NCBI GenBank assembly: GCA_017936265.1
Contig: JAGBFX010000025.1
Coordinates: 33,427 to 97,426, forward strand
Length of the DNA: 64,000 bases
Source of the DNA: Bacteroidaceae bacterium
GTDB lineage: Bacteria > Bacteroidota > Bacteroidia > Bacteroidales > Bacteroidaceae
Reading direction: 5' to 3'
Part shown: positions 1,557-15,795 of the stretch, piece by piece
How positions within the stretch are numbered: position 1 is the first letter of the stretch
Layout of the letters: each line of letters begins with the position of its first letter
Made by a program: the position numbers and the translations under genes
The notes under the pieces: generated by a model
What the model saw: only the letters and a program-made list of their open reading frames with translations
Database searches by the model: none
What the model was told of the DNA's origin: nothing

Positions 1557-2624
1557 ATGAAGAATCACGGAATAATCACACTGCTCATACTATTCCTGTT
1601 CTCATGCGGCAATGAGAAGCAGGAGAACATCTTTACCCTTGAGGGCAACACTGGTACCCCCGAGGGGAGTCTCTATCTTTTCGGCACTGACGGCCGTTAC
1701 GAAAAGAGAGACTCGACAGTGTGCGATGAGAACGGATTCTTCAGATTCACAATACCGGCCGACACCGTCATGCCGCTCGCGCTTATAACCCCCGACATGC
1801 GTCTTGTGCCGGTGTACGCCGAGCCGAAGCTGAAGGCCGAACTGCTGCGCGACACCACCATGAATAACGGTTGGTGCGTAAAGGGTGGCGCTGTGCAGGC
1901 ACTGCACGACAGCATTTCAAGAGTGCTCGACGCATGCAACAGCACAAACATGCTTCACGAGACAATTGACTCGTTCATACTGAAGAACCCCATCTGTGAT
2001 GTAAACGTAGAGATTGTACGCCGTTACATGACCGAACTGCCAAAGACCGACCATAGAGCCATACGCGCACGTACAGGTAATTTAGGCGGTATAATGAAGG
2101 ACCACACTTTCTTTGCCATGCTGAAGGAGAGAACCGACAACAAGGTAAGCAATGTCGAGCACCGTTCCTTCCCATCGTTCAACTACACTACCGCTGACAG
2201 CATTGAACTCACGCAGACAGAACTTCTCAAGAAATACACCCTGGTAACATTCTGGGCCTCATGGGATGAAGGAAGCCGCGAGAGGATAAAAGCATTGTCA
2301 GGAATACAGGACAGCATAGAGAGCAAGAGTTTCGCGCTGCTCAACATCTCATTCGACCACGACTCGGCAACCTGGAGGAAATTCATTGAAGAGGACAGCA
2401 TTACAGGCAACAACGTCATCGAGAGCAAGATGTTCGGCAGTGCCATAGCAAAGCAGTTCAGCATAAAATCACTGCCATTCACCATGCTCGTGAGCCCGTA
2501 CCAGAGAGTGCTGAAGTATGATCTCGATATGAACGGCATTGTGTCACACATTGACTCCTTGACAAGGAGGTATGACAAGGAGCAGGAAAAGAAGAACAAG
2601 AAGATAACGAACAAACTGAAATAA
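1557..2624 (+). CDS. Lipoprotein with a TlpA/AhpC-like thioredoxin fold that lacks the CXXC motif
   Basis: ATG at 1557 gives MKNHGIITLLILFLFSCGNE, a lipobox with Cys. The C-terminal half reads 'TLVTFWASWDEGSRERIKAL', where TlpA-type proteins have FWASWCGPC. Confidence 0.7.
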   Translation: MKNHGIITLLILFLFSCGNEKQENIFTLEGNTGTPEGSLYLFGTDGRYEKRDSTVCDENGFFRFTIPADTVMPLALITPDMRLVPVYAEPKLKAELLRDTTMNNGWCVKGGAVQALHDSISRVLDACNSTNMLHETIDSFILKNPICDVNVEIVRRYMTELPKTDHRAIRARTGNLGGIMKDHTFFAMLKERTDNKVSNVEHRSFPSFNYTTADSIELTQTELLKKYTLVTFWASWDEGSRERIKALSGIQDSIESKSFALLNISFDHDSATWRKFIEEDSITGNNVIESKMFGSAIAKQFSIKSLPFTMLVSPYQRVLKYDLDMNGIVSHIDSLTRRYDKEQEKKNKKITNKLK

Positions 2625-2626
2625 GC

Positions 2627-4165
2627 ATGCTTGTAAAGGTTCTTGCAGCAGCCATACAAGGCATTAACGCGACACTCGTCACAATAGAGGTCAACGCACT
2701 GCGAGGTATAAAGTTCTACCTTGTAGGGTTGCCAGACAATGCAGTCAAGGAGAGCCATCAGCGAATAAACTCGGCACTCCAGTACAACGGGTTGCGTTTC
2801 CCGAGCAAACAGATTATTGTAAACATGGCGCCTGCCGACATAAAGAAGGAAGGATCGGCCTATGACCTTCCTATCGCCGTAGGCATACTTGCCGCCGACG
2901 AAGTCATCTCGACAGACAAGCTCGGCAAGTACCTCATCATGGGCGAGCTCGGTCTTGACGGAATGCTCGTGCCGATAAAAGGTGCCCTCCCAATAACGAT
3001 AAAAGCAAAGGAGCTTGGTTACGAAGGGATCATTCTGCCGAGAGGCAACGCTGCCGAGGCGGCTGTCGTTGACGGCATAGAGATATACGCCGCCGAGAAC
3101 ATAATGCAGGTAATAAGATTCCTAAACGGCGAGGAGGAGATTCCTCCCTTCAATGTTGACATCGAGAGGGATTTCTACTCGCAGCAGAGCAATTTCCCGT
3201 TCGATTTCAGCGAGGTACGCGGCCAGGAGAGCATCAAACGCGCCTTCGAGGTAGCCGCTGCAGGCGGACACAACCTCATAATGGTGGGCCCCCCAGGCAG
3301 CGGAAAATCAATGATGGCAAAGAGACTTCCCTCGATTCTTCCCCCGCTGACACTTAGCGAGAGCCTTGAAACGACAAAGATACACTCCGTAAGCGGTATG
3401 ATGCCTGACGGAGTATCGCTGATAACACAACGCCCGTTCCGTAGCCCACACCATACAATATCATCTGTGGCACTGTGCGGAGGAGGGGCAAACCCCAAAC
3501 CTGGAGAAATATCACTGGCACATAACGGCGTGCTGTTCCTTGATGAGTTGCCTGAGTTCAGTCGCGACGTACTCGAAGTGATGCGTCAACCGCTCGAGGA
3601 CCGCAAGATATGTGTCGCACGCGCCAACTACAAGGTAGAGTACCCTGCAGGCGTAATGTTTGTGGCAAGCATGAACCCGTGTCCGTGCGGTTATTACAAT
3701 CACCCCACCAAGGCATGCACATGCAGCCCCGGGCAGGTACAGCGTTATCTCAACAAGATAAGCGGCCCGTTGCTCGACCGTATCGACCTTCAGATAGAGA
3801 TTGTCCCTGTACCCTTCGAGGAGATATCGAAAACAGCACCCGGCGAGCCAAGCGCGGCCATACGCGAGCGCGTGATATCCGCACGCAAGATACAGGAGGA
3901 GCGTTTCAAGAATGAGAAAGGCATCTACTGCAACGCACAGATGACGCCAAAGCTAATTGCAAAATATGCAGTGCTCGATGAGACAAGCCTCGCCATGCTG
4001 AAGACAGCCATGACAAGGTTCGACCTATCGGCACGCGCCTATGACCGCATACTCAAGGTAGCCCGCACAATCGCCGACCTTGACAAGAGCGAGAACATAC
4101 AGTTCCAGCATATTGCCGAGGCCATCGGCTACCGCAACCTCGACAGGGCCACCTGGGGAGAATAA
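2627..4165 (+). CDS. comM: YifB/ComM family Mg-chelatase-like AAA+ ATPase
   Basis: 512 aa. Walker A is GPPGSGKSMMAKRL and Walker B is VLFLDELPEF. It has a Lon-protease-like N-domain and the typical C-terminus 'IAEAIGYRNLDR'. Confidence 0.9.
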   Translation: MLVKVLAAAIQGINATLVTIEVNALRGIKFYLVGLPDNAVKESHQRINSALQYNGLRFPSKQIIVNMAPADIKKEGSAYDLPIAVGILAADEVISTDKLGKYLIMGELGLDGMLVPIKGALPITIKAKELGYEGIILPRGNAAEAAVVDGIEIYAAENIMQVIRFLNGEEEIPPFNVDIERDFYSQQSNFPFDFSEVRGQESIKRAFEVAAAGGHNLIMVGPPGSGKSMMAKRLPSILPPLTLSESLETTKIHSVSGMMPDGVSLITQRPFRSPHHTISSVALCGGGANPKPGEISLAHNGVLFLDELPEFSRDVLEVMRQPLEDRKICVARANYKVEYPAGVMFVASMNPCPCGYYNHPTKACTCSPGQVQRYLNKISGPLLDRIDLQIEIVPVPFEEISKTAPGEPSAAIRERVISARKIQEERFKNEKGIYCNAQMTPKLIAKYAVLDETSLAMLKTAMTRFDLSARAYDRILKVARTIADLDKSENIQFQHIAEAIGYRNLDRATWGE

Positions 4166-4292
4166 TTACCCCTGACGGCAGACAGCCGGGCAAAGTACAG
4201 ACAGGATCGGCACCACACGGGATGCCGGACAGGCAGAACTGTCAAAGTCGGGGAAACATGATTCAGAGGTACGAACTAACACATAAACAAAA

Positions 4293-6692
4293 ATGCACAC
4301 ATCAATACTACAGACATTCATATGCAAGTTGCCTGATATTCCAGAACAAGGCATCGGCGGTTGCGAATTATTGGCCTTTGCCGGTCAGAGTTTTATCATC
4401 GGACTTCTAATAGCACTTCTCTCTCCCGGTATCCTTTACTTTCTTGGCAGGAAAAAGAGTTTCAGAGGCCGGAACCTTATGGTGCCTTTCGTGTCAACAT
4501 GGCTGGCAGGCTTTATCGTATATGATGTCGGCATGTTTACAGGTAACTACTGGTCACTGATCAGCAACATGCCGATGGCTGTCATACATGCATTCAAGAT
4601 GTTCATCCTGGAAAGTGATATCAGCGAAGTGCAATCAAATTTTCACAGTAATTGGATATTCATGTCCTTCTATTCATTGGCCCATTTCTCGGCTGCCGCA
4701 ATAAGTCTGTGGTTTGTAATAGAGCATTTCGGATTCAACATTGTCGCATCTGTCAAATGCTTCCTCAGTTCAACATGCATTGCCAGAGCAAAAGACAACG
4801 TATACGTATTCTGGGGAGTCAATGACGCTGCCCACCATCTGGCCAAAAGCATCAATACCCACCACGAGAAGAACGGAGGCACATACAGGATTATTGTCAT
4901 AAGATCAGGGAACGACAATGAGACCAGGCAGAAAGTAAATGGTTTTGAAAGGCTTTTCCACTTCCTCTCTTTAAACAACAAAGAGATAGACTATATAAGG
5001 GACATCAAGGCCTGCCTCACGACAAGCACGTTTGTAAGTCTTTCTGACCTGAATCTCCAGGCATCAGGAGAGAACCCCGACATACTCAGGTCTCTGGGGT
5101 TGAAGACCGTTTCGAGAGTCATAAGTAAAAAGACCAAAGGAGATGTCTTTGTATTCTTCTTGTCAGACAATGAATCCACCAACATAAAATCGGTCACAAA
5201 CCTGAAACAGGACTGCACCCTGCAGAAGATTGCCAAGAATAGGCAAGTAAAATTCTTCTGCCACGCAAGATACAACAGCATAAACAGAGTGATTGAAGAC
5301 ATCGATATCACAAACATGATTGAGACCAGGATTATCGACACATCCCACATGTCAATCGAATGTCTGAAACGTGAAAGCAGATACCAGCCTGTCAGCTTTG
5401 TAGACATCAACCCTGATGACGGCACGGTAGATTCACCCTTCACGAGTCTGATCGTCGGTTTTGGCGAAACAGGCAGGGATGCATTGAGGTTCCTGTATGA
5501 GTTCGGTGCTTTCGTTGACAGCAACACCGGGAAGCGCAGTGTATTCAACTGCCATATTGTAGACAAACAGCTCGGTTCAATAGAAGGAGCACTCATAAAT
5601 ACATGCCCCAGAATATTTGAGAGCAGGAACACCGCCGATGACTCTCTTCTGGTTAAGCGCCACATGATAGATTACACTTCTGATGCATTCTTCAACGACC
5701 TGCTTGCGAAACTGGCCGATAAACTGAACTACATTGTCATTACTATAGGAAATGATGATGCCGGAATGACACTGGCGGTACGCATAATGAAATACCTTAT
5801 GCGCCTTGGGCGAAACTTCGACAAGCTACGCATATTTGTACGTTCATATAAATCTTCACAGTACTCCCACATGTCAAAGATAGCCAAGCACTACAATGAG
5901 AATGAAGAAAGAATCGTGCTGTTCGGCAACGAGGAGCAACTCTATTCTTACGGGATGGTTGTAGAGGACAATTTCGAGAAGCGTGGCAAAGAGTATTATG
6001 AGGCATATCGTTCACTGAACCCAGGACACGATGAAGACGGGACATGGGAGCAGCGTAGGAGGAAACTGCTGGGACTTGCAAGACTCCACAAGACCGGCCG
6101 TAAAGACCCCTGCACCGGCTGCAAGATATTCGAAGAGGAGTCTATCTGCAACCCCGGGCCGACACCGTTGAACAGTATACAGAAGCTTCGCCGCAAGGAG
6201 GCACAGGACAAAGCCAACGCCATGCATGAGACAACAAAGATAATGATTCTTGAGCATGTTATGCCAAAATGGTTATCAGAGCTTGTCCCTGCGCTGTTCA
6301 AGTTCACGAACACAGGAGAACAGACTATCATTACCGTCAATAGGGAGCACCATCATGATGCAAATCCCAAGAGCGTAAAATATACAAAGTTGACTCCCAA
6401 GCAACAAGCCCTGATGGACAATCTTGCAAAGCTTGAACACCTGCGTTGGAATGCATCGCACGAAATTCTCGGCTACAGGACAACACCGACGGAAATCCCA
6501 GATGAGCAGAGAGGGTGTGATGAGACCAGAATGACACACAACTGTTTGGTAGAATGGGATGAATTGGACAAGGAATCCGACAGAATAAAATATATTGATG
6601 ATTACAAGATTTATGACTATAGCGTCGTAGAAACCACCATCAACATATACCGGAAAGGAGCGGTTTCACAAAAGGCTGAGGTGCAACAATGA
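4293..6692 (+). CDS. Membrane protein with ~4 N-terminal TM helices, two Rossmann/TrkA-N-like domains and a RyR-like C-terminal domain; function unknown
   Basis: 799-aa ORF with hydrophobic segments in aa ~25-165. The first domain has a degenerate beta-alpha motif, VYVFWGVNDAAHHLAKSI. The second has GxGxxG (LIVGFGETGRDALRFL) followed by an acidic HIVDK. The C-terminus is 'LAKLEHLRWNASHEILGY...THNCLVEWDELDKES...DYKIYDYSVVE', the RyR-repeat pattern. The start codon is uncertain because no canonical promoter lies upstream. Confidence 0.6.
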   Translation: MHTSILQTFICKLPDIPEQGIGGCELLAFAGQSFIIGLLIALLSPGILYFLGRKKSFRGRNLMVPFVSTWLAGFIVYDVGMFTGNYWSLISNMPMAVIHAFKMFILESDISEVQSNFHSNWIFMSFYSLAHFSAAAISLWFVIEHFGFNIVASVKCFLSSTCIARAKDNVYVFWGVNDAAHHLAKSINTHHEKNGGTYRIIVIRSGNDNETRQKVNGFERLFHFLSLNNKEIDYIRDIKACLTTSTFVSLSDLNLQASGENPDILRSLGLKTVSRVISKKTKGDVFVFFLSDNESTNIKSVTNLKQDCTLQKIAKNRQVKFFCHARYNSINRVIEDIDITNMIETRIIDTSHMSIECLKRESRYQPVSFVDINPDDGTVDSPFTSLIVGFGETGRDALRFLYEFGAFVDSNTGKRSVFNCHIVDKQLGSIEGALINTCPRIFESRNTADDSLLVKRHMIDYTSDAFFNDLLAKLADKLNYIVITIGNDDAGMTLAVRIMKYLMRLGRNFDKLRIFVRSYKSSQYSHMSKIAKHYNENEERIVLFGNEEQLYSYGMVVEDNFEKRGKEYYEAYRSLNPGHDEDGTWEQRRRKLLGLARLHKTGRKDPCTGCKIFEEESICNPGPTPLNSIQKLRRKEAQDKANAMHETTKIMILEHVMPKWLSELVPALFKFTNTGEQTIITVNREHHHDANPKSVKYTKLTPKQQALMDNLAKLEHLRWNASHEILGYRTTPTEIPDEQRGCDETRMTHNCLVEWDELDKESDRIKYIDDYKIYDYSVVETTINIYRKGAVSQKAEVQQ

Positions 6693-7108
6693 CAACACCG
6701 ATGACAGACAGTCGGGCGCAGTACAGACAGATGGCTGTCAGAGCAGGAAAACATAAACCACTTATTATACATATAACCGATATGCCACACATTAAAATCA
6801 AATTGACAGTCTCGGAATGGGACATCGGCGGCAAGGACGACACCACATCATACGTTCTTGACAGCGAAGTAAAAGAAGTAGGCGAAATTCTTGTCGTGAA
6901 CAAGGTATTCCCCGAACGGTACACATTCACAGTGAAAGGTATTTCCGATACGGAAATATGCCTTGATTGCGAATGCCCTCCCATGTCCTTGCACCTTAAG
7001 AAAGGTGAGCCCTACAATGCGGAATACAACATCGAAGGTTACGAGGACCACGACGGCTGTGTCTGGAACGGTGAGGATGAGTATCTGACCATTGAGTGGC
7101 AGGAGTGA
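6689..7108 (+). CDS. Hypothetical 139-aa protein, translationally coupled to the upstream gene
   Basis: ATGA overlap: ATG at 6689-6691 and the upstream TGA at 6690-6692. No family recognised and no TM segment. It has Cys/His-containing motifs (CLDCECPP, HDGCVW). Confidence 0.55.
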   Translation: MTTPMTDSRAQYRQMAVRAGKHKPLIIHITDMPHIKIKLTVSEWDIGGKDDTTSYVLDSEVKEVGEILVVNKVFPERYTFTVKGISDTEICLDCECPPMSLHLKKGEPYNAEYNIEGYEDHDGCVWNGEDEYLTIEWQE

Positions 7109-7145
7109 AAAGCAGCTACCCCCGTAAACAATAGAACTACAGACA

Positions 7146-7730
7146 ATGGAGACAAAGAGTATCTGCGTATACTGCGCATCGAGCAACAAGGCCGCCGAAA
7201 TCTACTGTGAAACTGCATATAAATTGGGCGCCCTGCTTGCCAAAGAGGGCATAACGGTCATTACCGGTGCGGGAAGCATCGGTCTGATGCGCATGGTAGA
7301 GGACGGCGCGCTTGACAACGGCGGCAGTGCAATCGGTGTAATTCCGCAGTTTATGGTCGAGCAGGGCTGGCATCATACAGGGCTTACAGAGCTGCGCATA
7401 ACGGAGAGCATGCATGAGCGCAAACAGACCATGGCAGACCTTAGTGACGCTGTGATTGCACTGCCCGGCGGCTGCGGCACCATAGAGGAACTGAGCGAGA
7501 TTATTACGTGGAAACAGTTGGGACTATATTTCAACCCCATTGTCATTCTCAACATCAACGGCTACTATGACCACTTTATCGCACAGTTGGGAAAGGCCAT
7601 CGAAGAGCGCTTCATGGGCGAGATCCATGGCAAGATATGGAGCGTGGCCTCAACTCCCGAAGAGGCTCTTGAGATAATAAGGAACACACCGCGCTGGGAT
7701 GCGTCGGTAAGAAAATACGCCGCGCTATGA
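7146..7730 (+). CDS. LOG family protein (TIGR00730-type Rossmann fold nucleotide/nucleoside-5'-monophosphate hydrolase)
   Basis: 194 aa with GAGSIGLM and PGGCGTIEEL, the PGGxGTxxE LOG motif. Confidence 0.85.
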   Translation: METKSICVYCASSNKAAEIYCETAYKLGALLAKEGITVITGAGSIGLMRMVEDGALDNGGSAIGVIPQFMVEQGWHHTGLTELRITESMHERKQTMADLSDAVIALPGGCGTIEELSEIITWKQLGLYFNPIVILNINGYYDHFIAQLGKAIEERFMGEIHGKIWSVASTPEEALEIIRNTPRWDASVRKYAAL

Positions 7731-8422
7731 CAAATGCTCCAGCTCCGTACAGCATGACAACAGACAGCGTCATCATGCTGCTGTTCATCCTGAACATCAT
7801 AGGTATCTCCTATGTGATTCTGATGAACGGCGCAAGCATCATTGAACGCACAAAGGGGCTGTTCTACTATCAGCACAAGTCGATGCCTTTCGGCGACAGG
7901 ACCCATATAACAAGGATATGCAATGCCCTGATGTACGCGCAGACAATCTTCTATCTGGCGATAATAACCATGGCCGCAATGAAAGAGAGGAGCGAGGTCG
8001 CGATTGAAAAGAGCCCGCTGACCTACCTCACCGCATATTCCACCCTATTCCTGTTCTTCTTCATTGTCAAACGCATAATGTACGACGCGACAAACAGCAT
8101 CCTCTACTCGAAAAAGGAGATGCTGGAGTGGAGAAATTTATATTTCTTTACAATAAAGCTGCTTGGCTTTGCATTGGCCCCTGCGGCAATAGCAATTCTG
8201 TTCATTCCGTCATTACCTTTGAATTATGTGAACTTTTATATCATTTTGACATCAGGAACCTTTATATACACTATAATAGGCGGTGCTGTCAAAATCATTT
8301 TCACAAAAAAAAGAAACTATTTGGAGATTTTTTTGTATCTTTGCGCACTTGAATTTTTACCCATAGCAATGGTGTGGAAATCCTTACTACAACTAAGCGA
8401 ATTGATAACAATAAAAATTTAG
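7727..8422 (+). CDS. Polytopic membrane protein (DUF4271-like, name from memory)
   Basis: 231 aa with ~6 hydrophobic helices. It shares an ATGA overlap with the LOG stop. It precedes the HemD-like gene, as I recall for Bacteroidetes. Confidence 0.6.
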   Translation: MTNAPAPYSMTTDSVIMLLFILNIIGISYVILMNGASIIERTKGLFYYQHKSMPFGDRTHITRICNALMYAQTIFYLAIITMAAMKERSEVAIEKSPLTYLTAYSTLFLFFFIVKRIMYDATNSILYSKKEMLEWRNLYFFTIKLLGFALAPAAIAILFIPSLPLNYVNFYIILTSGTFIYTIIGGAVKIIFTKKRNYLEIFLYLCALEFLPIAMVWKSLLQLSELITIKI

Positions 8423-8426
8423 GACA

Positions 8427-9167
8427 TTGAAGGTAAGTAAGATTTTGGTTTCTCAGCCGAAGCCGACCACTGGTAAATCTCCATATTTTGAACTTGCGGA
8501 GAAGCATAGCGTACAAATTGATTTCTGTTCATTCATAAAGGTTGAAGGAGTGACCGCAAAGGAGTTCCGTCAGCAGAAGGTATCTATAACAGGACACACT
8601 GCAATAGTATTCCTTTCACGTCATGCGATTGACCACTTCTTCACGCTGTGCAAGGAGCTGAGGGTAAACATCCCCGATGACATGAAATACTTCTGTCTAT
8701 CGGAGACCGTATCGCTTTACATACAGAAGTATGTCCAGTATCGCAAGCGCAAGGTATTCTTCGGCAACGGACACATACAGGACCTTGAGCCTCTGTTCGC
8801 AAAGCACAAAACCGAGAAATACTTCGTGCCTACATCAAATGTACACAACACCGAAATCAACGCAATCTTCGACAAGTACGAAATCATGCACTCTCAGGCC
8901 GAGATGTACCGCACCGTAAGCACAGACATCTCACCCGAGTACATAAAGTCATACGACATGCTCATCTTCTTCAGTCCGCACGGTATCGACTCGCTCAAGA
9001 AAAACATGCCCGACTACGTGCAGGGCGAACAGCTCATCGCATGCTTCGGTAATGTAACGGCAAAATATATCAAGGAGCACAACCTGCGTCTCGACCTTGA
9101 GGCCCCATCTGCAACAGCAACCAACATGCCTGCAGCTTTGGACGCCTATCTTGCAGCAAACAAATAA
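8427..9167 (+). CDS. Uroporphyrinogen-III synthase (HemD) family protein
   Basis: TTG start. 'KILVSQPKPTTGKSPYFELAEKHSVQIDFCSFIKVE' is typical of the Bacteroidetes HemD-like family. Confidence 0.75.
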   Translation: MKVSKILVSQPKPTTGKSPYFELAEKHSVQIDFCSFIKVEGVTAKEFRQQKVSITGHTAIVFLSRHAIDHFFTLCKELRVNIPDDMKYFCLSETVSLYIQKYVQYRKRKVFFGNGHIQDLEPLFAKHKTEKYFVPTSNVHNTEINAIFDKYEIMHSQAEMYRTVSTDISPEYIKSYDMLIFFSPHGIDSLKKNMPDYVQGEQLIACFGNVTAKYIKEHNLRLDLEAPSATATNMPAALDAYLAANK

Positions 9168-9180
9168 GGAACATATAATA

Positions 9181-9212
9181 AGAGGGCGACCGGTCGGTCG
9201 CCCTCTATTTCT
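9181..9212 (+). terminator. Intrinsic terminator after the HemD-like gene
   Basis: Perfect 11-bp stem, agagggcgacc / ggtcgccctct, with a 4-nt loop, followed by atttct. Confidence 0.7.
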
Positions 9213-9227
9213 CTAACAGAACCCGAC

Positions 9228-9620
9228 ATGCCACGTAACACCTTCCCGTTAAAAGAGCACCTCAAAAGCAAAAAGACAATTGAGAAGCTGTATGCCGAAG
9301 GAGCATCGGTAACCGCATTCCCCTTGCGTGCCGTTTTCATTGAGCAGGGCCAGGAGGAGCAGGAACCCGTGGCTGCAATACTCATCAGCGTGGCAAAGAA
9401 GAGGTTCCGTCATGCAGTTGACCGGAATCTGGTAAAGAGACGCATCCGCGAGGCCTACCGCACGAGCAAACACCCGTTCATAGAAGCACTTGAGAACAAA
9501 GGCAAGAAGATGGCTGTTGCAATACTGTATATCGACACACGCCACAACAGCACATCATTCATCAGACGCAAGATGGAGAGGTTGCTCGAGGGTATAATAA
9601 AGAAGCACGAGACTGCATGA
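9228..9620 (+). CDS. rnpA: Ribonuclease P protein component
   Basis: 130 aa, basic. '[22 protein letters not shown]' is the RnpA signature region. Confidence 0.9.
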
Positions 9621-9838
9621 AAAGACTCCTTGCAAATATTCTCATACTCCCGATAAGGTTCTATCAGAAGTGCATATCGCCCCTGACACCGCCATCGTGC
9701 CGATTCACTCCCACATGTTCGCAATACGCCATTGAGGCCCTGCGCAAGCACGGACCGTTCAAAGGGCTATGGCTCGCCATAAGACGTATCCTGCGTTGCC
9801 ACCCATGGGGAGGCTCAGGATATGACCCCGTACCATAA
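9617..9838 (+). CDS. yidD: Membrane protein insertion efficiency factor YidD
   Basis: 73 aa with '[27 protein letters not shown]'. ATGA overlap with rnpA. Confidence 0.92.
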
Positions 9839-9852
9839 GACAAGCTACAGGA

Positions 9853-10473
9853 ATGATTCTGCTCGACATACACACCCACAATACACTGGCCGACCCGGAG
9901 CGGGCGATATTGAACTGCACGCAGTACGAAACCGGGAGAAAAATCTCGCTCGGTATACATCCATGGCACATCAGCAACGATTGGAAGGAGGAGTTCCGGC
10001 TTCTTGAGCAGACCGCAAGCAATACCAATGTCATCGCCATTGGCGAATGCGGGATGGACAGGCTGAAATCATCAGCCGAGGCAGAGCTGCAGAGAGAGCT
10101 CTTCCGTGCACATGCCCTGCTTGCCGAGAGAGAGCATAAACCTTTGATCATACATTGTGTGAAAGCATTTGATGACATTCTTGCCATACGTAAGGAGATT
10201 ATCCCTGGACAGGCATGGATCATCCATGGGTTCCGCGGCAAGCCCCAGCTGGCCGAGCAGCTGACAAAGGCAGGGATGTTCCTTTCATTGGGTGAGCATT
10301 TCAATGCTGAAAGTGCAAAAACGATACCTGCCGGGAGACTCTTCATAGAGAGCGATGAGAGCACTTTGACTATCGGGGAGATATACAGCCGCATTGCATC
10401 GGCAAGAGGTACTTGCATTGATGAACTGGCGGCACAGACCTATTCAAACAGCATGATTTTCAAACAATATTAA
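9853..10473 (+). CDS. TatD family metal-dependent hydrolase (short form)
   Basis: 206 aa with 'LLDIHTH', 'AIGECGMD' and 'PLIIHCV' metal-ligand motifs. Confidence 0.8.
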   Translation: MILLDIHTHNTLADPERAILNCTQYETGRKISLGIHPWHISNDWKEEFRLLEQTASNTNVIAIGECGMDRLKSSAEAELQRELFRAHALLAEREHKPLIIHCVKAFDDILAIRKEIIPGQAWIIHGFRGKPQLAEQLTKAGMFLSLGEHFNAESAKTIPAGRLFIESDESTLTIGEIYSRIASARGTCIDELAAQTYSNSMIFKQY

Positions 10474-10630
10474 CCGTATTTTGCCGTTTAATGCAACAGC
10501 AAGGAATGTTCACGCCAAATAATTGGCCCGGTAGACAAAATTTCCTATTTTTGCGTTAAACCGCGAAAACAGGATGTGGCTCGGGATAAAAAAACAAGTG
10601 AACTTGTTTTATTCTCCACTCGCCTTTCAC

Positions 10631-10638
10631 TATTTTTG
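10631..10638 (+). promoter_or_regulatory. Candidate Bacteroidetes -7 box (TATTTTTG) for the amino-sugar operon
   Basis: Matches TAnnTTTG, 37 nt upstream of the ATG at 10675. A second copy lies at 10546-10553. Confidence 0.35.
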
Positions 10639-10674
10639 CAATTGTTCACTGCCAACAGAACAGTATACCCGAAG

Positions 10675-11061
10675 ATGGACAAATTAAAGACTTTTACCGA
10701 CAGCCGAGGCAACCTTACCATTGTTGAAGAAGGACACGAGGTGCCATTCAACATAAAGCGAGTATACTGGATATACGGTGTACCTGAAGGAGAGGAACGC
10801 GGCAAGCACTCCAACAAAGTATCGTGGGAGTATGTGGTCGCTGTCAGCGGCAGTGTAGAGATAACACTCGAGGACAAGAACGGCAGAGAGACATATCTGC
10901 TCGACTCAAAGGAGAAAGGATTGGTCATCCCCCCCGACACATGGGATGAGATAAGGAATTTCTCACAGGATGCAGTGCTGTTGGTGCTTGCATCGCACTC
11001 ATACGATGAGACTGCCTACATTAACTCATACGAGGAATTCCTGCAATATATCGGCAAATGA
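10675..11061 (+). CDS. FdtA/WxcM-like sugar 3,4-ketoisomerase (cupin)
   Basis: ATG at 10675 (MDKLKTFTDSRGNLTIVEE...). 'PFNIKRVYWIYGVPEGEERGKH' is typical of dTDP-4-keto-6-deoxyhexose 3,4-isomerases. The longer track ORF (10576) adds a non-homologous extension. Confidence 0.75.
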   Translation: MDKLKTFTDSRGNLTIVEEGHEVPFNIKRVYWIYGVPEGEERGKHSNKVSWEYVVAVSGSVEITLEDKNGRETYLLDSKEKGLVIPPDTWDEIRNFSQDAVLLVLASHSYDETAYINSYEEFLQYIGK

Positions 11062-12011
11062 AAGAAGTTAGGATAGCAAGATACACCCCCGATAAAGCCA
11101 AAGAATGGGACATGTTTGTCGAGGAGAGCCGCAATGGCACATTCCTGCACAGACGAGACTACATGGATTATCATGCCGACCGTTTTACAGACCATTCATT
11201 GCTGTTCTACCGTGACGAAGAGCTTGCAGCGATACTTCCCGCGCATATTAAGGGAGAACTGTTCTGCTCGCACAACGGTCTCACATACGGCGGCTTGCTC
11301 CTCAAGAAGGATATCACTACCGAGGAAGTGCTAGCGATGTTCAGCATGACGCTCAGACACATCGCAGAAGAAACCGACGCAACCACATTCATATATAAGC
11401 CCACCCCGCATATTTACCACAGCTATCCCTGCGAAGAGGACCTCTATGCACTGTTCCGCAACAATGCCAGACTGACCGAGCGTAAGGTATCCTCTGCAAT
11501 ACGACTGAACATGCCACTGCCGATAAGTGGCAGACGCAGACTTACGGAGGCAATGAGAAAGAGACTGCACATAGTTGAGGACGGCGACCTTGCCGCATTC
11601 TGGAGCATTCTTGAGGAGAGGCTACAGGACAAGTATGGCGTATCTCCTGTACACAGCATAGAGGAAATACGTATACTGAAGAGCCGTTTTCCCGAGAACA
11701 TCATACTGACATACGTAACCGACGAGGCAGGGAACATTCTCGGCGGCACATTACTGTTCGTAACCGGGAATGTGGTACACATGCAATACAGCACAACTAC
11801 CGAAGAAGGACGCCGCGTGAGTGCACTCGACTATCTGTACGAGCATCTTATAAACGAGCGCTTCGCCGACAAGGAATACTTTGACTTCGGCATCTCGGTC
11901 GAAGAGGGCGGGTTATACCTCAACAGCGGACTAATAGCCTACAAGGAGCGACTCGGCGGAAGAGCCGTTGTGTATGATACATATGCCATTGACCTGAAAA
12001 CGCCTGTATGA
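11058..12011 (+). CDS. Double-GNAT (FemAB-like fold) acyltransferase
   Basis: 317 aa, overlapping both neighbours by 4 nt. The family call is from memory of similar Bacteroidetes proteins placed between WxcM-like and DegT genes. Confidence 0.55.
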
Positions 12012-13114
12012 TGATTAGATATAATGACCTTAAGAAGATAAACGACGCATACGAGCCTGAGCTGTCAGAAGCTGTGACAAGAGCAGTACGCTCGGGGTGG
12101 TACATACGAGGCAACGAGGACGCGCGTTTCGAGGAGGCATTCGCCGGTTATTGCGGATGCAGCCACTGCATAGGTACAGGAAACGGGCTGGACGCGCTCA
12201 GTATCATAATGCACGCATACCGCGAACTTGGAGTAATGGAAGAAGGGAATGAGGTCATTGTGCCCGCCAACACATTCATCGCCACCATCCTTGCCATAAT
12301 GCATGCGGGGCTCAAGCCCGTATTGTGCGAGCCGTCGGCATCATCATACAACATCGATGCCACAAAGATTGAGCAATTTATTACCGAACGCACACGGGCC
12401 ATAATGCCCGTACACCTATACGGGCAGACCGCCGAAATGGAGCACATTAACGCAATAGCCAAGAAACACTCACTGAAAGTCATTGAAGATGCAGCACAAG
12501 CACACGGAGCCACGTACAACGGTATACGCGTCGGAAGCCTTGGCGATGCAGCAGGCTTCAGTTTCTACCCGGGAAAGAACCTCGGCGCAGTGGGAGACGG
12601 CGGAGCTATAACTACAAACGACAGAGAACTTGCCGAGGTTGCGAGAGCCATTGCAAACTACGGTTCACACAAAAGATATGTAAACCGCTACATGGGATTC
12701 AACAGCCGCCTCGATGAACTTCAGGCCGCCGTATTGGGTGTAAAGCTACCATATCTTGACAGCGACAACGGGAGACGTCGAAACATTGCACGCCGTTACA
12801 TCACAGAGATAGACAATCCACATGTTACATTACCACAGGTAGAGGATTACAGCAGACATGTATTCCATATATTCGCACTTATGTCCCAGTACAGGGAGAA
12901 GCTGCAGGAGCACCTGAAAACAGAAGGAATTGAAACACTCATACACTACCCCATTCCCCCGCACAGGCAAGAGGCACTCAGGCAATTCTGTCACCTGTCG
13001 CTACCTATAACCGAGCAGATTCACAGAGAGGAACTGAGCCTTCCGTGCAACCCCGCAATGAGTGAAGAGGAGGTCACCAGGGTGATTGAGGCGGTAAACA
13101 GTTTCAGACCCTGA
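12008..13114 (+). CDS. DegT/DnrJ/EryC1/StrS family PLP-dependent sugar aminotransferase
   Basis: 368 aa with 'EDAAQAHGA' and '[10 protein letters not shown]', the PLP-lysine region. Confidence 0.9.
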
Positions 13115-13231
13115 CCGGCTCTAACGGCACCTAAACATTGCACAGAGAACGCAACCATTATCCGCGCAACATAATTACAGAACGCGTAATGACCGTTATC
13201 CAAAGGGCTTATACTCAAAAAGAAGGAAAAT

Positions 13232-13264
13232 ATTTGCTTTTTACGCTCGTTTGCATTACCTTTG
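13232..13264 (+). promoter_or_regulatory. Candidate promoter for tRNA-Gln (TTTG-N21-TACCTTTG)
   Basis: The -33 TTTG is at 13232-13235 and the -7 TAnnTTTG at 13257-13264. The -7 box ends ~33 nt upstream of the tRNA. Confidence 0.5.
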
Positions 13265-13296
13265 CACCGCTCTTCAAAAGAGAGCACAATGAGGAT

Positions 13297-13367
13297 TGTC
13301 CTATGGTGTAATGGTAGCACAACAGGTTTTGGTTCTGTTTGTCCTGGTTCGAATCCGGGTAGGACAA
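13297..13367 (+). tRNA. tRNA-Gln (anticodon TTG)
   Basis: Cloverleaf folded by hand. The acceptor is TGTCCTA/TAGGACA, the D arm GTGT..GCAC, the anticodon stem ACAGG/TCTGT with loop TTTTGGT, and the T arm CCTGG-TTCGAAT-CCGGG. CCA is not encoded. Confidence 0.9.
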
Positions 13368-13370
13368 CAA

Positions 13371-13402
13371 AAAAGTCAGTTTCGTTTGAAACTGACTTTT
13401 TT
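13371..13402. terminator. Bidirectional intrinsic terminator (tRNA-Gln / luxS)
   Basis: 13-bp stem aaaagtcagtttc / gaaactgactttt with loop gttt. It is flanked by an A-run and a T-run, so it has a U-tract on both strands. Confidence 0.8.
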
Positions 13403-13414
13403 GTTGTATACCGC

Positions 13415-13894
13415 TTACTCGGGATAGTTCAGATTTTCTTCTGTCGCGCACTCAAGAACCTCGGCAAGATATTTGCGGGCCTCCCAACGTGCCTCGGGCA
13501 GGTTCATCAGCAGATGGTTGCCACAGTCGCGTGCTGTTGCTCCAGGAATGTCGCCCTCATATGAAGCGATGAAGGCAAAAGTCTCCTTCATCAGCTGGAG
13601 TATATCGGACGAAGAGAGATCGCCCTTTACTATCAAGTAGTTGCCTGTAAGGCAGCCCATAGGCCCCCAATACACAATGTCGCTCGCCCATACGGGATGG
13701 TTACGCAGGAAGGTTGCAGCAAGGTGCTCCATAGTGTGTATGGCGCTCGGGCTGAGCGCGGGCTCACGGTTGGGCTCTTTCATGCGCACATCGAAAGTCG
13801 TTATCACTTCGTCGCCGACAGTGTCCTTGCGCGACACATATATGCCACGTTTAAGACGGATGTGGTCTATTGTAAAACTCGGAATCTTTTCCAT
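13415..13894 (-). CDS. luxS: S-ribosylhomocysteine lyase
   Basis: ATG at 13894 (MEKIPSFTIDH...). It has the HTMEHL metal motif and GCLTG. The 196-aa track ORF would run into mtnN. Confidence 0.92.
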   Translation of the reverse strand: MEKIPSFTIDHIRLKRGIYVSRKDTVGDEVITTFDVRMKEPNREPALSPSAIHTMEHLAATFLRNHPVWASDIVYWGPMGCLTGNYLIVKGDLSSSDILQLMKETFAFIASYEGDIPGATARDCGNHLLMNLPEARWEARKYLAEVLECATEENLNYPE

Positions 13895-13898
13895 ATCG

Positions 13899-14594
13899 TT
13901 AAAGGCTTGAAAGGAAACGTCGGGTAACGTCAAATGAGCGGTTGGCCATCTCGCCCCAAAAATTCTCATACTGCTCGATATGCTTCTCCACCCCGGGCGT
14001 GTCACTTATGATGCGGAAACTGACAAAAGGCACATTGTAGATATGGCATGTCTGCGCAATGGCAGCCGACTCCATATCAACGGCAAGACCGGCTGGGAAG
14101 TTCGACTTTATCTTCTCGAGTTCCCCGCGGTCGGTAATGAACTGGTCGCCTGTACATATGAGCCCCGCGTGGATATGTGTACTGTTCTCGGGTGAGTCAT
14201 TGAGCGCCTCGGCTTTCTGCCACAGGCGGTACGGCACCGGAAAGACGGCAGGCATACCCTGCACCTGACCATACTCGCATCCCATTCCGCACCACACGTC
14301 ATGATAGACTATTGATGAACTCACAACGACGTCCATCACACCGAGACACTTGTCTATGCCACCAGCGACACCGGTACTCACGACAGCATCGGGAGAGAAT
14401 GAGCGGATGAGTTCTGCCGCACCCAATGCAGCATTGACCTTACCTATTCCACACTGGCGAAGCACAATCGCATTCTCGCCCAAGGTACCCGTCAGATACT
14501 TGAAACCATCCTTCTCGCACTCCTCCGCACCACAGAGCAGCTTTGCAAGCTGCTCATACTCGGATGTCATTGCCGTCAATACGCCTATTCTCAT
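13899..14594 (-). CDS. mtnN: 5'-methylthioadenosine/S-adenosylhomocysteine nucleosidase
   Basis: 231 aa with 'GIGKVNAA', 'STGVAGG' and 'DMESAAIAQ'. Confidence 0.92.
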   Translation of the reverse strand: MRIGVLTAMTSEYEQLAKLLCGAEECEKDGFKYLTGTLGENAIVLRQCGIGKVNAALGAAELIRSFSPDAVVSTGVAGGIDKCLGVMDVVVSSSIVYHDVWCGMGCEYGQVQGMPAVFPVPYRLWQKAEALNDSPENSTHIHAGLICTGDQFITDRGELEKIKSNFPAGLAVDMESAAIAQTCHIYNVPFVSFRIISDTPGVEKHIEQYENFWGEMANRSFDVTRRFLSSL

Positions 14595-14631
14595 AAAAAC
14601 CGTTCTTTGTCTATATCTGTCTACATAACAA

Positions 14632-15795
14632 TTATGCCATCAACATTGATACAAGAACATATATCCAATGTGCTGCAATACCTGCTACTAAGCCACCAAT
14701 CGTATGTGATAAAATATCCTTTGAAGTAAGACGGCGGTAACCGAGAGCATCGAGCATAGCTGTATGTGTGCTGAGGAAGCCACTCCAGCACATACCGATG
14801 GCAGTAAACACCGCGATAGCATTGCCGTCAATCCATCCCTCGGCCGCGAAGTTGGGAACAAGGCCAAGAGCCGCACCTACAGCACCGATAGCTGTAATAG
14901 GAAATGCAATGAGATGTGGATCGGTAAAGCCGAAGAGCCACTCAAAGATGAAACCGAGTTTCTCTCCGACCCAAGGCAATAGCTGTACACCCTCATAGGC
15001 AGCACCTGTAAAGTCACCAGTCGCCTTTTCTGGACCGAATGTCAATATCATCACAAAAGTAGATATTACGATAACGCCTGGAATGATCATCATACCTACA
15101 TCTACTCCGGTGCGTCCACCATCGAGCAATGAGTCAAGAATACGCAAGAACATAGGCCTTCTGCCGTGGATATCCTTCTCTTCCTCTATATCGTCCAGTT
15201 CCGCCGCATTCTCCTCCTTATAACGGGGATAAGTCTTTACAACAAAGTACTGCATAAGCCTTGTTGAGACAATACATCCGATGACAGCACCAATGAAACC
15301 TACAAGAGGCTCCATAAAATAGCCCTGACCTATCATAAACACAATAACCAACAGGCCCATACCGAAAGCAGTTCCGAAGTTATTGAGCGAGATGAACTGA
15401 TACTTCTTGAAGTATGATGCAAATTTCTTGTCCTGTGCAAGAGAAATGATAGCCGGATTATCAGAGAGGAATGTAAGTACTGCACCCAATGACGCCACAC
15501 CTGGAAGGTTGAAAAGAGGCTTCATCAGCGGACGAAGCAGTTTCTCAAGAAGATTGACAACACCGAACTCGACAAAGATCTTTCCAATGGCACCTGTCAA
15601 CACGCAAATAGCCATAAGATAGAACACAGTGTTAAGCAGCAGGTCGTGCGCCGTGTTCATTACAGTGTTAAGCATATTTGCCGCACCCATCTTGTAACCC
15701 AAATAACCGAACAGCGCAAAAAATATCACCAGACAGATTACTCCGGCAGGGAACCAGCCGAAAATTTTCTTTAAAAAGTTCTTTGTCGTTCTCAT
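14632..15795 (-). CDS. Nucleoside-recognition (Gate) domain membrane protein
   Basis: ATG at 15795 (MRTTKNFLKK...). It is polytopic. The family assignment is from memory of YjiH/Gate-domain proteins. The 80-aa upstream extension in the track looks non-coding. Confidence 0.5.
   Translation of the reverse strand: MRTTKNFLKKIFGWFPAGVICLVIFFALFGYLGYKMGAANMLNTVMNTAHDLLLNTVFYLMAICVLTGAIGKIFVEFGVVNLLEKLLRPLMKPLFNLPGVASLGAVLTFLSDNPAIISLAQDKKFASYFKKYQFISLNNFGTAFGMGLLVIVFMIGQGYFMEPLVGFIGAVIGCIVSTRLMQYFVVKTYPRYKEENAAELDDIEEEKDIHGRRPMFLRILDSLLDGGRTGVDVGMMIIPGVIVISTFVMILTFGPEKATGDFTGAAYEGVQLLPWVGEKLGFIFEWLFGFTDPHLIAFPITAIGAVGAALGLVPNFAAEGWIDGNAIAVFTAIGMCWSGFLSTHTAMLDALGYRRLTSKDILSHTIGGLVAGIAAHWIYVLVSMLMA

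Follow-up and report, generated by a model that had tools for sequence, protein, structure and literature searches.

This report concerns a gene for a 799-amino-acid (aa) membrane protein found in 64,000 nucleotides (nt) of DNA from a Bacteroidaceae bacterium (assembly GCA_017936265.1, contig JAGBFX010000025.1, positions 33,427 to 97,426); this whole stretch is hereafter called the window, and positions are counted from its first letter. The gene lies between two housekeeping genes, comM/yifB and LOG, and is followed by a 139-aa open reading frame (ORF). ORF calls and Pfam matches confirm this arrangement, including the ATGA overlap between the two ORFs, as it had been described in an earlier interpretation made from the letters alone (the sequence-only reading). 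Comparison with stretches from related genomes (labeled L001-L098) provides good support for the following account of the locus: one gene (4293-6692) has been inserted between comM and a resident 108-aa gene, and the spacer has been duplicated. The features of the locus are as follows:

2627-4165, + strand: comM/yifB, 512 aa (Pfam Mg_chelatase E 1.3e-95, also ChlI and Mg_chelatase_C); the left boundary of the insertion site, outside the element
4168-4300, + strand: left spacer copy, a duplicate that has diverged from the native spacer between comM and the small gene and now supplies the 799-aa gene with its 5' region and start-codon context
4293-6692, + strand: the 799-aa gene, sole inserted gene, encoding a transmembrane (TM), tandem-RCK and RyR-domain protein
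6689-7108, + strand: the 139-aa ORF, with the ATGA overlap with the 799-aa ORF
6695-6790, + strand: right spacer copy, the native 5' region of the small gene, which aligns with the empty-site spacer of L098
6782-7108, + strand: the resident small gene, 108 aa, with conserved Cys-x-Cys-Pro-Pro and DGCVWNGEDE motifs; outside the insertion
7146-7730: the LOG gene (Lysine_decarbox E 3.5e-38), right neighbor

The synteny survey revealed the empty junction in sister genomes that the sequence-only reading had proposed to look for. Specifically, the small gene directly follows comM and the 799-aa gene is lacking in seven loci (L004-L007, L009, L010, and L098), one of L004-L007 being the Bacteroidaceae metagenome-assembled genome (MAG) GCA_054269325.1. 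The comM gene of L005 is ~85% identical to that of the window at the nucleotide level, and the homology ends exactly at the comM stop codon, only to restart ~25 nt ahead of the small-gene ATG. The insert was said to have no flanking direct repeat, which proved to be wrong: positions 4168-4300 and 6695-6790 form an imperfect direct duplication in which 75/92 nt are identical in a gapped alignment (z = 6.9 versus shuffles), with an extra 28-nt insert in the left copy and a 31-nt core (4174-4204 / 6700-6730) that is 84% identical. The alignment extends through the start-codon context. Both spacer copies are also found, in the same arrangement, in L008, where the large gene encodes an 801-aa protein that is 93% identical to that of the window and is followed by a called ORF of 135 aa. 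The idea that spacer duplication marks insertions at this junction in general was considered and rejected, as L011 carries a 961-aa M16 peptidase gene (1880-4765) at the same comM/small-gene junction without any duplication. The 3' junction of comM is a recurrent site of gene gain, with different cargo across lineages. Judged as a genomic islet, the insert displays presence/absence at a conserved junction together with boundary repeats, and it lacks deviant composition, mobility genes, and a border tRNA.

The small gene downstream is a conserved companion of comM and a resident of the locus rather than a partner of the 799-aa gene. Its homologues are mostly 107 aa in length and start at a methionine matching residue 32 (the ATG at 6782), and the 31-residue upstream extension (6689-6781), the source of the ATGA overlap, is not conserved among them. 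The proposal of a two-gene insertion with translational coupling is thereby overturned, as is the view of the 139-aa ORF as a small partner. The small protein had no match in Pfam, NCBIfam, PADLOC, or PHROG; in the 79 loci from other species, a family member never has the small gene beside it; and no neighbor protein of the relatives matched 6689-7108. The link between comM and the small gene is tight in several Bacteroidaceae/Prevotella-like genomes, with a spacer of 21-66 nt, and the two ORFs overlap in L098. Beyond the small gene, the window differs from its sister genomes: LOG follows directly (7109-7145), whereas in L004-L007 LOG is separated from the small gene by genes for a GH84 N-acetylglucosaminidase, a sulfatase, and an S-adenosylhomocysteine hydrolase (8392-14681). 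Because the sister genomes carry these extra genes, the locus has undergone a second rearrangement or deletion.

Base composition lends weak support to horizontal transfer. Among the 68 ORFs of the window taken for gene composition statistics, the 799-aa gene (GC 0.453) is the 10th lowest in GC, 1.2 standard deviations under the gene mean (0.489 +/- 0.030; window overall, 0.483), and its GC at third codon positions (GC3), 0.544, matches the window mean of 0.543 (rank 35/68). The low GC that had drawn attention to the region is real relative to the immediate flanks (0.42-0.50 inside versus 0.52-0.55, in 400-nt windows) but modest relative to the window mean. Likewise, the reported shift of third codon positions toward A/T is seen only in comparison with comM and LOG (GC3 0.62 and 0.64), two unusually GC-rich neighbors. 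Since GC is only modestly low and GC3 is at the mean, composition by itself is no proof of horizontal acquisition. The lowest GC of all window ORFs, 0.417, belongs to a DUF4271 membrane gene (7727-8422) that is nevertheless syntenic in relatives, and positions 8000-8600 fall to 0.36-0.39, lower than the flagged region.

Window annotation revealed no tRNA, integrase, or transposase near the insert, as had been stated before; the sole tRNA of the window, a tRNA-Gln (anticodon TTG) at 13297-13368, is 6 kb away and unrelated. An Rfam scan of 3900-7400 gave no RNA family at E<=1, and a scan for sigma-70 promoters and terminators gave counts equal to shuffle expectation, sigma-70 scanning being ill-suited to Bacteroidetes promoters. 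As for the age of the insert, the 799-aa gene and comM share 92.9% and 92.8% nucleotide identity, respectively, with their counterparts in L008, and because the two are equally diverged, the insertion predates the split between the window and L008 lineages. The gene has been under purifying selection since insertion (ratio of nonsynonymous to synonymous substitution rates, dN/dS, of 0.145). Horizontal acquisition, as first proposed, fits the presence or absence of the gene at the junction in related genomes; composition contributes little to it, and the gene is not a recent arrival.

That the 799-aa protein belongs to a large, unnamed family of the Bacteroidales is well supported. More than 540 homologues, all unnamed, are present in a 90%-clustered collection, and 522 clusters at 50% identity are matched at E<=1e-30. 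Relatives were found in 235 species-representative genomes by a search with the family alignment, which was required, as a genome scan with the single 799-aa protein returned no relative. Nearly all of the best 80 of these 235 genomes are gut and rumen Bacteroidales (Muribaculaceae, Prevotellaceae, Bacteroidaceae, Porphyromonadaceae, and Rikenellaceae), the exceptions being two with Clostridiales/Lachnoclostridium MAG labels and one "uncultured bacterium". The family is nearly missing from viral contigs, with one match in 2.9 million; a phage origin was rejected, as this match sits within the usual chromosomal-type array. Searches with the single protein gave only three far-sub-threshold chance matches in NCBIfam, one sub-threshold match (E 0.0017) to a family of unknown function in PHROGs, and nothing useful in the PDB.

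Considerably more was learned from the AlphaFold2 (AF2) model of the monomer (predicted local distance difference test, pLDDT, 88.7; predicted template modeling score, pTM, 0.83), which was built on 49 sequences, the same number that underlies the family conservation and Pfam member counts given below. A Foldseek search of the full model against the PDB placed GsuK at the top (4gx1/4gx0, E 5.8e-9), followed by Slo2.2 (6e-6) and Slo1/BK (8e-6), and a search of viral structures (BFVD) returned generic Rossmann/glycosyltransferase matches, none at E<=0.001. Taken together with the profile searches, the model shows that the domain reading made at the outset (a membrane N-terminus, two TrkA-N-like Rossmann domains, the second with GFGETG at 389-394 and D424, and an RyR-like C-terminus) was essentially right. 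The domains are as follows:

4293-4772, + strand: membrane domain, aa 1-160 (AF2 secondary structure)
4797-5417, + strand: RCK1-like Rossmann domain, aa 169-375, whose glycine motif (F-W174-G175-x-N177) is degenerate, with an AF2 beta-alpha-beta pattern and Foldseek matches to GsuK, Slo1, and Slo2.2
5439-5966, + strand: RCK2-like Rossmann domain, aa 383-558, which carries G389-F-G-E-T-G394 and, where the second strand ends, D424
5970-6362, + strand: middle helical/beta domain, aa 560-690 (AF2 pLDDT >90)
6366-6689, + strand: RyR (Repeat12-like) domain, aa 692-799, C-terminal and helical, with H716, W719, H749, and D775

The tandem cytosolic RCK domains come straight after the inner helix, as judged by Foldseek and by AF2 (pLDDT >90 there). 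In RCK2, G389, F390, G394, and D424 are invariant, and the GxGxxG...D pattern is likely to form an adenine-nucleotide/NAD site, which is a prediction from the motif. Matches to TrkA_N are weak (12/49 members), and NAD_binding_7 is matched in 15/49. The middle domain has no Pfam match; a related region is present in a soluble neighbor family of ~513 aa (hhalign E 7e-4).

According to AF2, the membrane domain begins with a TM helix (residues 23-52), a basic loop (52-61), and an M1-like helix (60-80), followed by short helices (86-105) and a conserved loop, L-x-S-D-V-S-A-I-H (106-114), that together resemble a P-region. Finally, a long M2-like helix (121-160) runs straight into RCK1, as in MthK and GsuK. 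Few parts of the protein are as conserved as this domain (consensus VW..GFVVYDVGMYTG...SL..N.PMAIIHAF.MF.L.SDVSAIH..FH.N..FM..FSL.H..AA): G73 and Y77 are invariant, and P94, M95, A96, H99, S108, H114, H118, and H131 are conserved at >=90%. Such conservation exceeds the need of a mere anchor. The basic loops (52-61 and after 160) predict a cytoplasmic C-terminus, with 86-118 outside, as in an M1-P-M2 arrangement. In a separate model of aa 1-168 (pLDDT 84), the five Foldseek matches of highest probability, which are weak and non-significant, are all tetrameric cation-channel pores (TM-score on the target, TMt):

4zbm_A, NaK/CNG mimic, TMt 0.59
5vke_C, KcsA, TMt 0.58, root-mean-square deviation 4.6 Å
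7m2j_C, TMt 0.55
3vou_B, NaK chimera, TMt 0.45
6by2_C, KcsA, TMt 0.43

A likeness to the MthK pore was also tried and rejected: the alignment, which lands on the pore helix and filter of MthK, is insignificant, and AF2 shows a plain helix for that stretch. The remark that the protein has no recognizable channel pore therefore holds by sequence, but the best matches of the full model are RCK-gated K+ channels and its topology is M1-P-M2-like. The 799-aa protein is likely, though unproven, to be a channel.

At the C-terminus, a custom hidden Markov model (HMM) built from bona fide neighboring RyR proteins matches the 799-aa protein at E 6e-26. Pfam RyR matches 33/49 family members at E<=1 (best 4e-6), and the family profile matches an RyR1 repeat chimera in the PDB (6uhi, E 0.0025) and, weakly, 3nrt of B. 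thetaiotaomicron. Four invariant residues, H716, W719, H749, and D775, take the H..W, H, and YD positions when aligned with RyR repeats, including those of standalone RyR proteins, and the spacings come into agreement when a 9-residue insert specific to the family is left out. By motif and spacing, these residues appear to correspond to H75/W78/H100/D117 of RyDEP and H129/W132/H154/D171 of RyR Tad, two phage proteins. In the phage glycosidase RyDEP, H75, W78, H100, and D117 hold the ADP-ribose (ADPR) product of 3' cyclic ADPR (3'cADPR), and six of eight homologues tested bind 2'/3'cADPR (PMC13232231). RyR Tad binds 3'cADPR at 43 nM, as well as 2'cADPR and cADPR, and mutation of H129/W132, K147/H154, or K170/D171 weakens 3'cADPR binding ~100-fold (doi 10.64898/2026.06.04.730250).

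The gene neighborhoods of relatives were examined in 79 species-representative loci, in which ORFs were called and HMMs were built from Pfam-verified neighbors, and in a well-flanked subset of 49 loci with >=3 kb upstream and >=6 kb downstream. Single-linkage clustering of the neighbors was discarded, as it lumped TIR, LRR_5, and caspase proteins, and the TIR counts were redone with a dedicated HMM. A TIR ORF is present in 53/79 loci and an extra RyR ORF in 52/79, one or the other being found in 64/79; in the well-flanked loci the corresponding counts are 38/49, 35/49, and 43/49. Neither was found in seven comM control loci. Of the 68 TIR ORFs, 62 are on the same strand as the family gene, mostly 0-5 kb downstream. 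The catalytic Glu is kept in 97% of 77 TIR sequences, and the TIR proteins are fused to FGE-sulfatase, PBP-like, or other domains. Using PADLOC models, the relatives' TIRs weakly match ThsB (E 2.5e-7, 7.7e-7) and one neighbor matches a caspase.

The extra RyR proteins fall into three classes: standalone proteins of 95-112 aa (Pfam RyR E 9e-36), C39-peptidase-RyR fusions of ~311-368 aa, and a soluble family of ~511-524 aa with an RyR-like C-terminus. The fusions suggest a second candidate RyR-gated effector. For example, L043 (7208-8143) and L012 (9922-10860) encode ~312-aa C39-type cysteine peptidase-RyR fusions (RyR E 1e-30), and such genes usually follow a gene for a sigma-factor-like 184-aa protein located just after the focal family gene. 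The gene order in L012 is focal, 184 aa, C39-RyR, and TIR, with overlaps of 4-11 nt. A full array in L043 (293-11592) comprises M48, Zn-ribbon, TIR-FGE, focal, 139-aa, sigma-like, C39-RyR, and TIR genes. Other recurrent neighbors include LRR_5-caspase fusions, CHAT proteases, a trypsin-like protein, a kinase-like protein, an M48 peptidase with a zinc ribbon, PrsW, TPR proteins, and the sigma-factor-like 184-aa protein.

A five-gene block lies beside the focal family in at least nine species (L047 12373-18637; also L020, L023, L064, and L069); it encodes the ~513-aa protein (Rossmann-like N-terminus, RyR-like C-terminus), a trypsin-like protein, two small kinase-like lipoproteins, and a CHAT protease. 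Outside the lineage of the window itself, the nearest relative is the L001-L003 homologue P0003 (60% identity), which has AAA_25, DUF6371, DUF4248, HU-HIG, and Amidase_2 genes upstream and a gene for a 228-aa TerB-like protein downstream, followed by TPR, LRR_5, and ThsB_TIR genes; the 228-aa TerB-like family is at +1 or +2 in three loci. Across the family, close relatives may have or lack the gene, which is inserted at sites that vary by lineage.

The window copy itself stands alone. None of the recurrent neighbor families of its relatives is near the gene, and about one in eight relatives' loci is similarly bare; an adjoining TIR gene, typical of Thoeris systems, is thus a trait of the family and not of this copy. 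The LOG neighbor was considered as a functional link, since it is a member of the SLOG superfamily, whose fold is the sensor in ThsA, and was rejected: LOG-DUF4271-HEM4 is syntenic in relatives without the 799-aa gene. The signal for the window copy would have to come from outside the window, or the protein would sense ordinary adenine nucleotides.

Taken as a whole, these observations are best accommodated by a membrane channel effector gated through its RyR domain by a TIR-made nucleotide, a model that we prefer while giving it slightly less than an even chance. According to this model, the RCK domains would assemble the protein into a ring beneath a membrane pore. A TIR-made adenine nucleotide, presumably an ADPR derivative (2'cADPR, 3'cADPR, or cADPR), would bind the RyR domain at H716, W719, H749, and D775, and the pore would open on binding, possibly with NAD or ADP at the GxGxxG site of RCK2. 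The resulting ion flux would collapse the membrane potential, and the infected cell would stop growing, as expected of a Thoeris-like effector. The signal source and helpers (TIR, ~100-aa RyR, C39-peptidase-RyR, caspase, or CHAT proteins) would, in most relatives, be provided within the same operon-like array. Of all this, the insertion, the domain architecture, the conserved residues, and the gene association are observed, whereas the oligomer, the pore, the ligand, the direction of signaling, and a role in defense are inferred. The suggestion of a nucleotide-sensing membrane effector in conflict or defense, made in the sequence-only reading, fits the TIR, caspase/CHAT, trypsin-like, PrsW, and RyR neighborhoods of the relatives; its small partner does not survive. 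It is tempting to go further and regard the family as the effector arm of an undescribed Bacteroidales TIR system, in which a channel would be gated via an RyR Repeat12 domain by a TIR-made cyclic ADPR isomer. Such a system would form a prokaryotic equivalent of the connection between cADPR and the ryanodine receptor in animals, and might be its evolutionary source, with the co-encoded ~100-aa RyR proteins and C39-peptidase-RyR fusions serving as further signal readers or buffers. This broader proposal is speculative and rather doubtful.

Several results weigh against the channel-effector model. With respect to the pore, Ion_trans_2 matches 0/49 members; no TVGYG-like filter is present, the conserved loop L-x-S-D-V-S-A-I-H occupying the filter position; hhalign of the membrane domain against MthK gives a probability of 0.9%; Foldseek on aa 1-168 returned nothing below E ~1 (top matches E about 3); and, since AF2 modeled a monomer only, the pore and oligomer are predictions. 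With respect to the ligand, the Pfam RyR score of the 799-aa protein (E 0.008, 16.9 bits) is under the curated cut-off of 27.4, and a cyclic ADPR ligand is not specified by the four residues, because they are also conserved in animal RyR repeats that bind ATP/ADP. With respect to signaling, no frame of the 64-kb window encodes a TIR domain (E<=1) or a second RyR domain, and PADLOC v2, which has no model for the 799-aa protein, gave no match at E<=1. In addition, species-representative loci share ancestry, so the neighborhood counts are not independent events, and the proposed direction of signaling is tentative, because neighbors such as TIR-FGE-sulfatase, caspase, CHAT, and trypsin-like proteins class as effectors elsewhere.

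Three other explanations deserve consideration. The protein might be a housekeeping or stress RCK-gated cation channel of the GsuK, MthK, or Kch kind, without an immune role, tuned by the cell's NAD(H), ATP, or ADP at RCK2 and by ATP or ADP at the RyR domain. The structural matches to GsuK and Slo channels and the intact GxGxxG...D of RCK2 are as expected of such a channel, the Repeat12 domain of animals has been described as a site for ATP and drugs (doi 10.64898/2026.06.04.730250), and the window copy sits solo among housekeeping genes, under purifying selection and co-diverged with comM. However, a channel of this kind is difficult to reconcile with the missing K+ selectivity filter and Ion_trans_2 match, with a patchy presence in close relatives at lineage-dependent sites, and with the pairing of the gene with TIR and/or extra RyR genes and conflict-type proteases in 43/49 well-flanked loci, and we consider it unlikely. 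Less probable again is a membrane-anchored terminator or buffer, whose RyR domain would sequester cyclic ADPR or hydrolyze it via an H716/D775 dyad, as RyDEP does, thereby setting a threshold for TIR signaling or shutting it off, with the membrane and RCK parts serving localization or regulation. While H716 and D775 are invariant at the positions of the RyDEP catalytic dyad H75/D117 (PMC13232231), non-catalytic sponge homologues and animal RyRs conserve them too, so that they give no indication of catalysis (PMC13232231). Similarly, the several RyR proteins often found in relatives' loci, including ~100-aa standalone ones resembling phage sponges, would suit a buffer, but the strong conservation of the membrane domain and RCK tandem would go unexplained, and the family is nearly missing from viral contigs.

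Finally, a horizontally acquired two-gene module, consisting of the 799-aa sensor/effector and a coupled 139-aa partner, can hardly be maintained. The ATGA overlap in the window and the 135-aa ORF after the large gene in L008 speak for it; synteny refutes it, as the small gene follows comM in seven loci without the large gene, its homologues start at Met32 without the extension, and the recurrent neighbors of the family in other species are quite different.

The preferred model of a TIR-gated channel effector would, if true, bring to TIR signaling a sensor domain and an effector type that are both new, in a phylum with little-explored Thoeris biology. It would also hint at what the many orphan Bacteroides proteins called "putative ryanodine receptor" may do, and the question of why animal ryanodine receptors carry the domain would become directly testable. 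The 2026 preprints on phage RyR proteins are without host proteins that use the same domain, and the 799-aa family would be such a host-side user. For annotation, the small ORF is better treated as a comM-linked resident gene, and the comM 3' junction as a host of differing cargo genes. A literature search, outside which most subscription journals lay, yielded no report that describes the 799-aa family or an RyR-domain effector on the host side, and none that connects TIR systems with this family or with any bacterial membrane protein carrying an RyR domain.

The closest known systems include GsuK, the multi-ligand-gated K+ channel of Geobacter sulfurreducens (4GX0/4GX1), and the Slo1 and Slo2.2 channels, which likewise combine a membrane domain and tandem RCK domains in one chain, with a nucleotide-type GxGxxG...D site in one RCK, and which gave the best Foldseek matches (E 6e-9 to 1e-4). 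Unlike these channels, the 799-aa protein has neither a TVGYG filter nor an Ion_trans_2 signature, and it possesses an extra N-terminal helix as well as an added middle domain and C-terminal RyR domain. The C-terminal domain is shared with RyDEP (PMC13232231) and RyR Tad (doi 10.64898/2026.06.04.730250), each of which has a single Repeat12-like domain with the same H..W, H, and D positions; in the phage proteins these positions bind 2'cADPR, 3'cADPR, and cADPR (PMC13232231; doi 10.64898/2026.06.04.730250). The phage proteins are small, soluble, and dimeric and act against the host by sponging or cleaving the signal, whereas here the RyR domain is a module at the C-terminus of a chromosomal membrane protein of 800 aa, whose family is encoded beside TIR genes, and binding is putative. 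Standalone bacterial RyR proteins, such as the "putative ryanodine receptor" of B. thetaiotaomicron (3NRT, 103 aa), consist of the same domain without a membrane or RCK part, and this size class (95-112 aa) is encoded beside the family in many loci. In animal ryanodine receptors, a homologous Repeat12 domain, seen in the profile match to 6uhi, likewise accompanies a cation channel responsive to adenine nucleotides; there, a tandem repeat pair is part of a 5000-aa, six-TM Ca2+ release channel, while the bacterial protein has a single repeat on an RCK-type chassis, and nothing ties it to Ca2+.

A parallel in genetic organization is provided by Thoeris. A systematic survey lists 29 effector types, among which are the membrane effectors ThsC Macro-TM (type II), ThsF DUF2270 (V), ThsH SLATT (VII), and ThsK "ion channel" (X), with Vibrio and Bacillus as the listed examples of type X (doi 10.64898/2025.12.03.692087). 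The text and examined supplements of that survey make no mention of RyR, PF02026, or TrkA (doi 10.64898/2025.12.03.692087), and it is by description only that the type X ThsK is set apart from the 799-aa family. As in those systems, relatives of the 799-aa gene place a TIR gene beside a membrane protein with a cytosolic nucleotide-sensing domain, and several TIR genes with variable fused domains may occur per locus. In contrast to two-gene Thoeris operons, the relatives' loci are multi-gene arrays, and the window copy is without a TIR gene. The logic of a TIR-linked, nucleotide-sensing effector is thus already familiar from Thoeris, whereas the sensor, an RyR domain, and the chassis that carries it are new.

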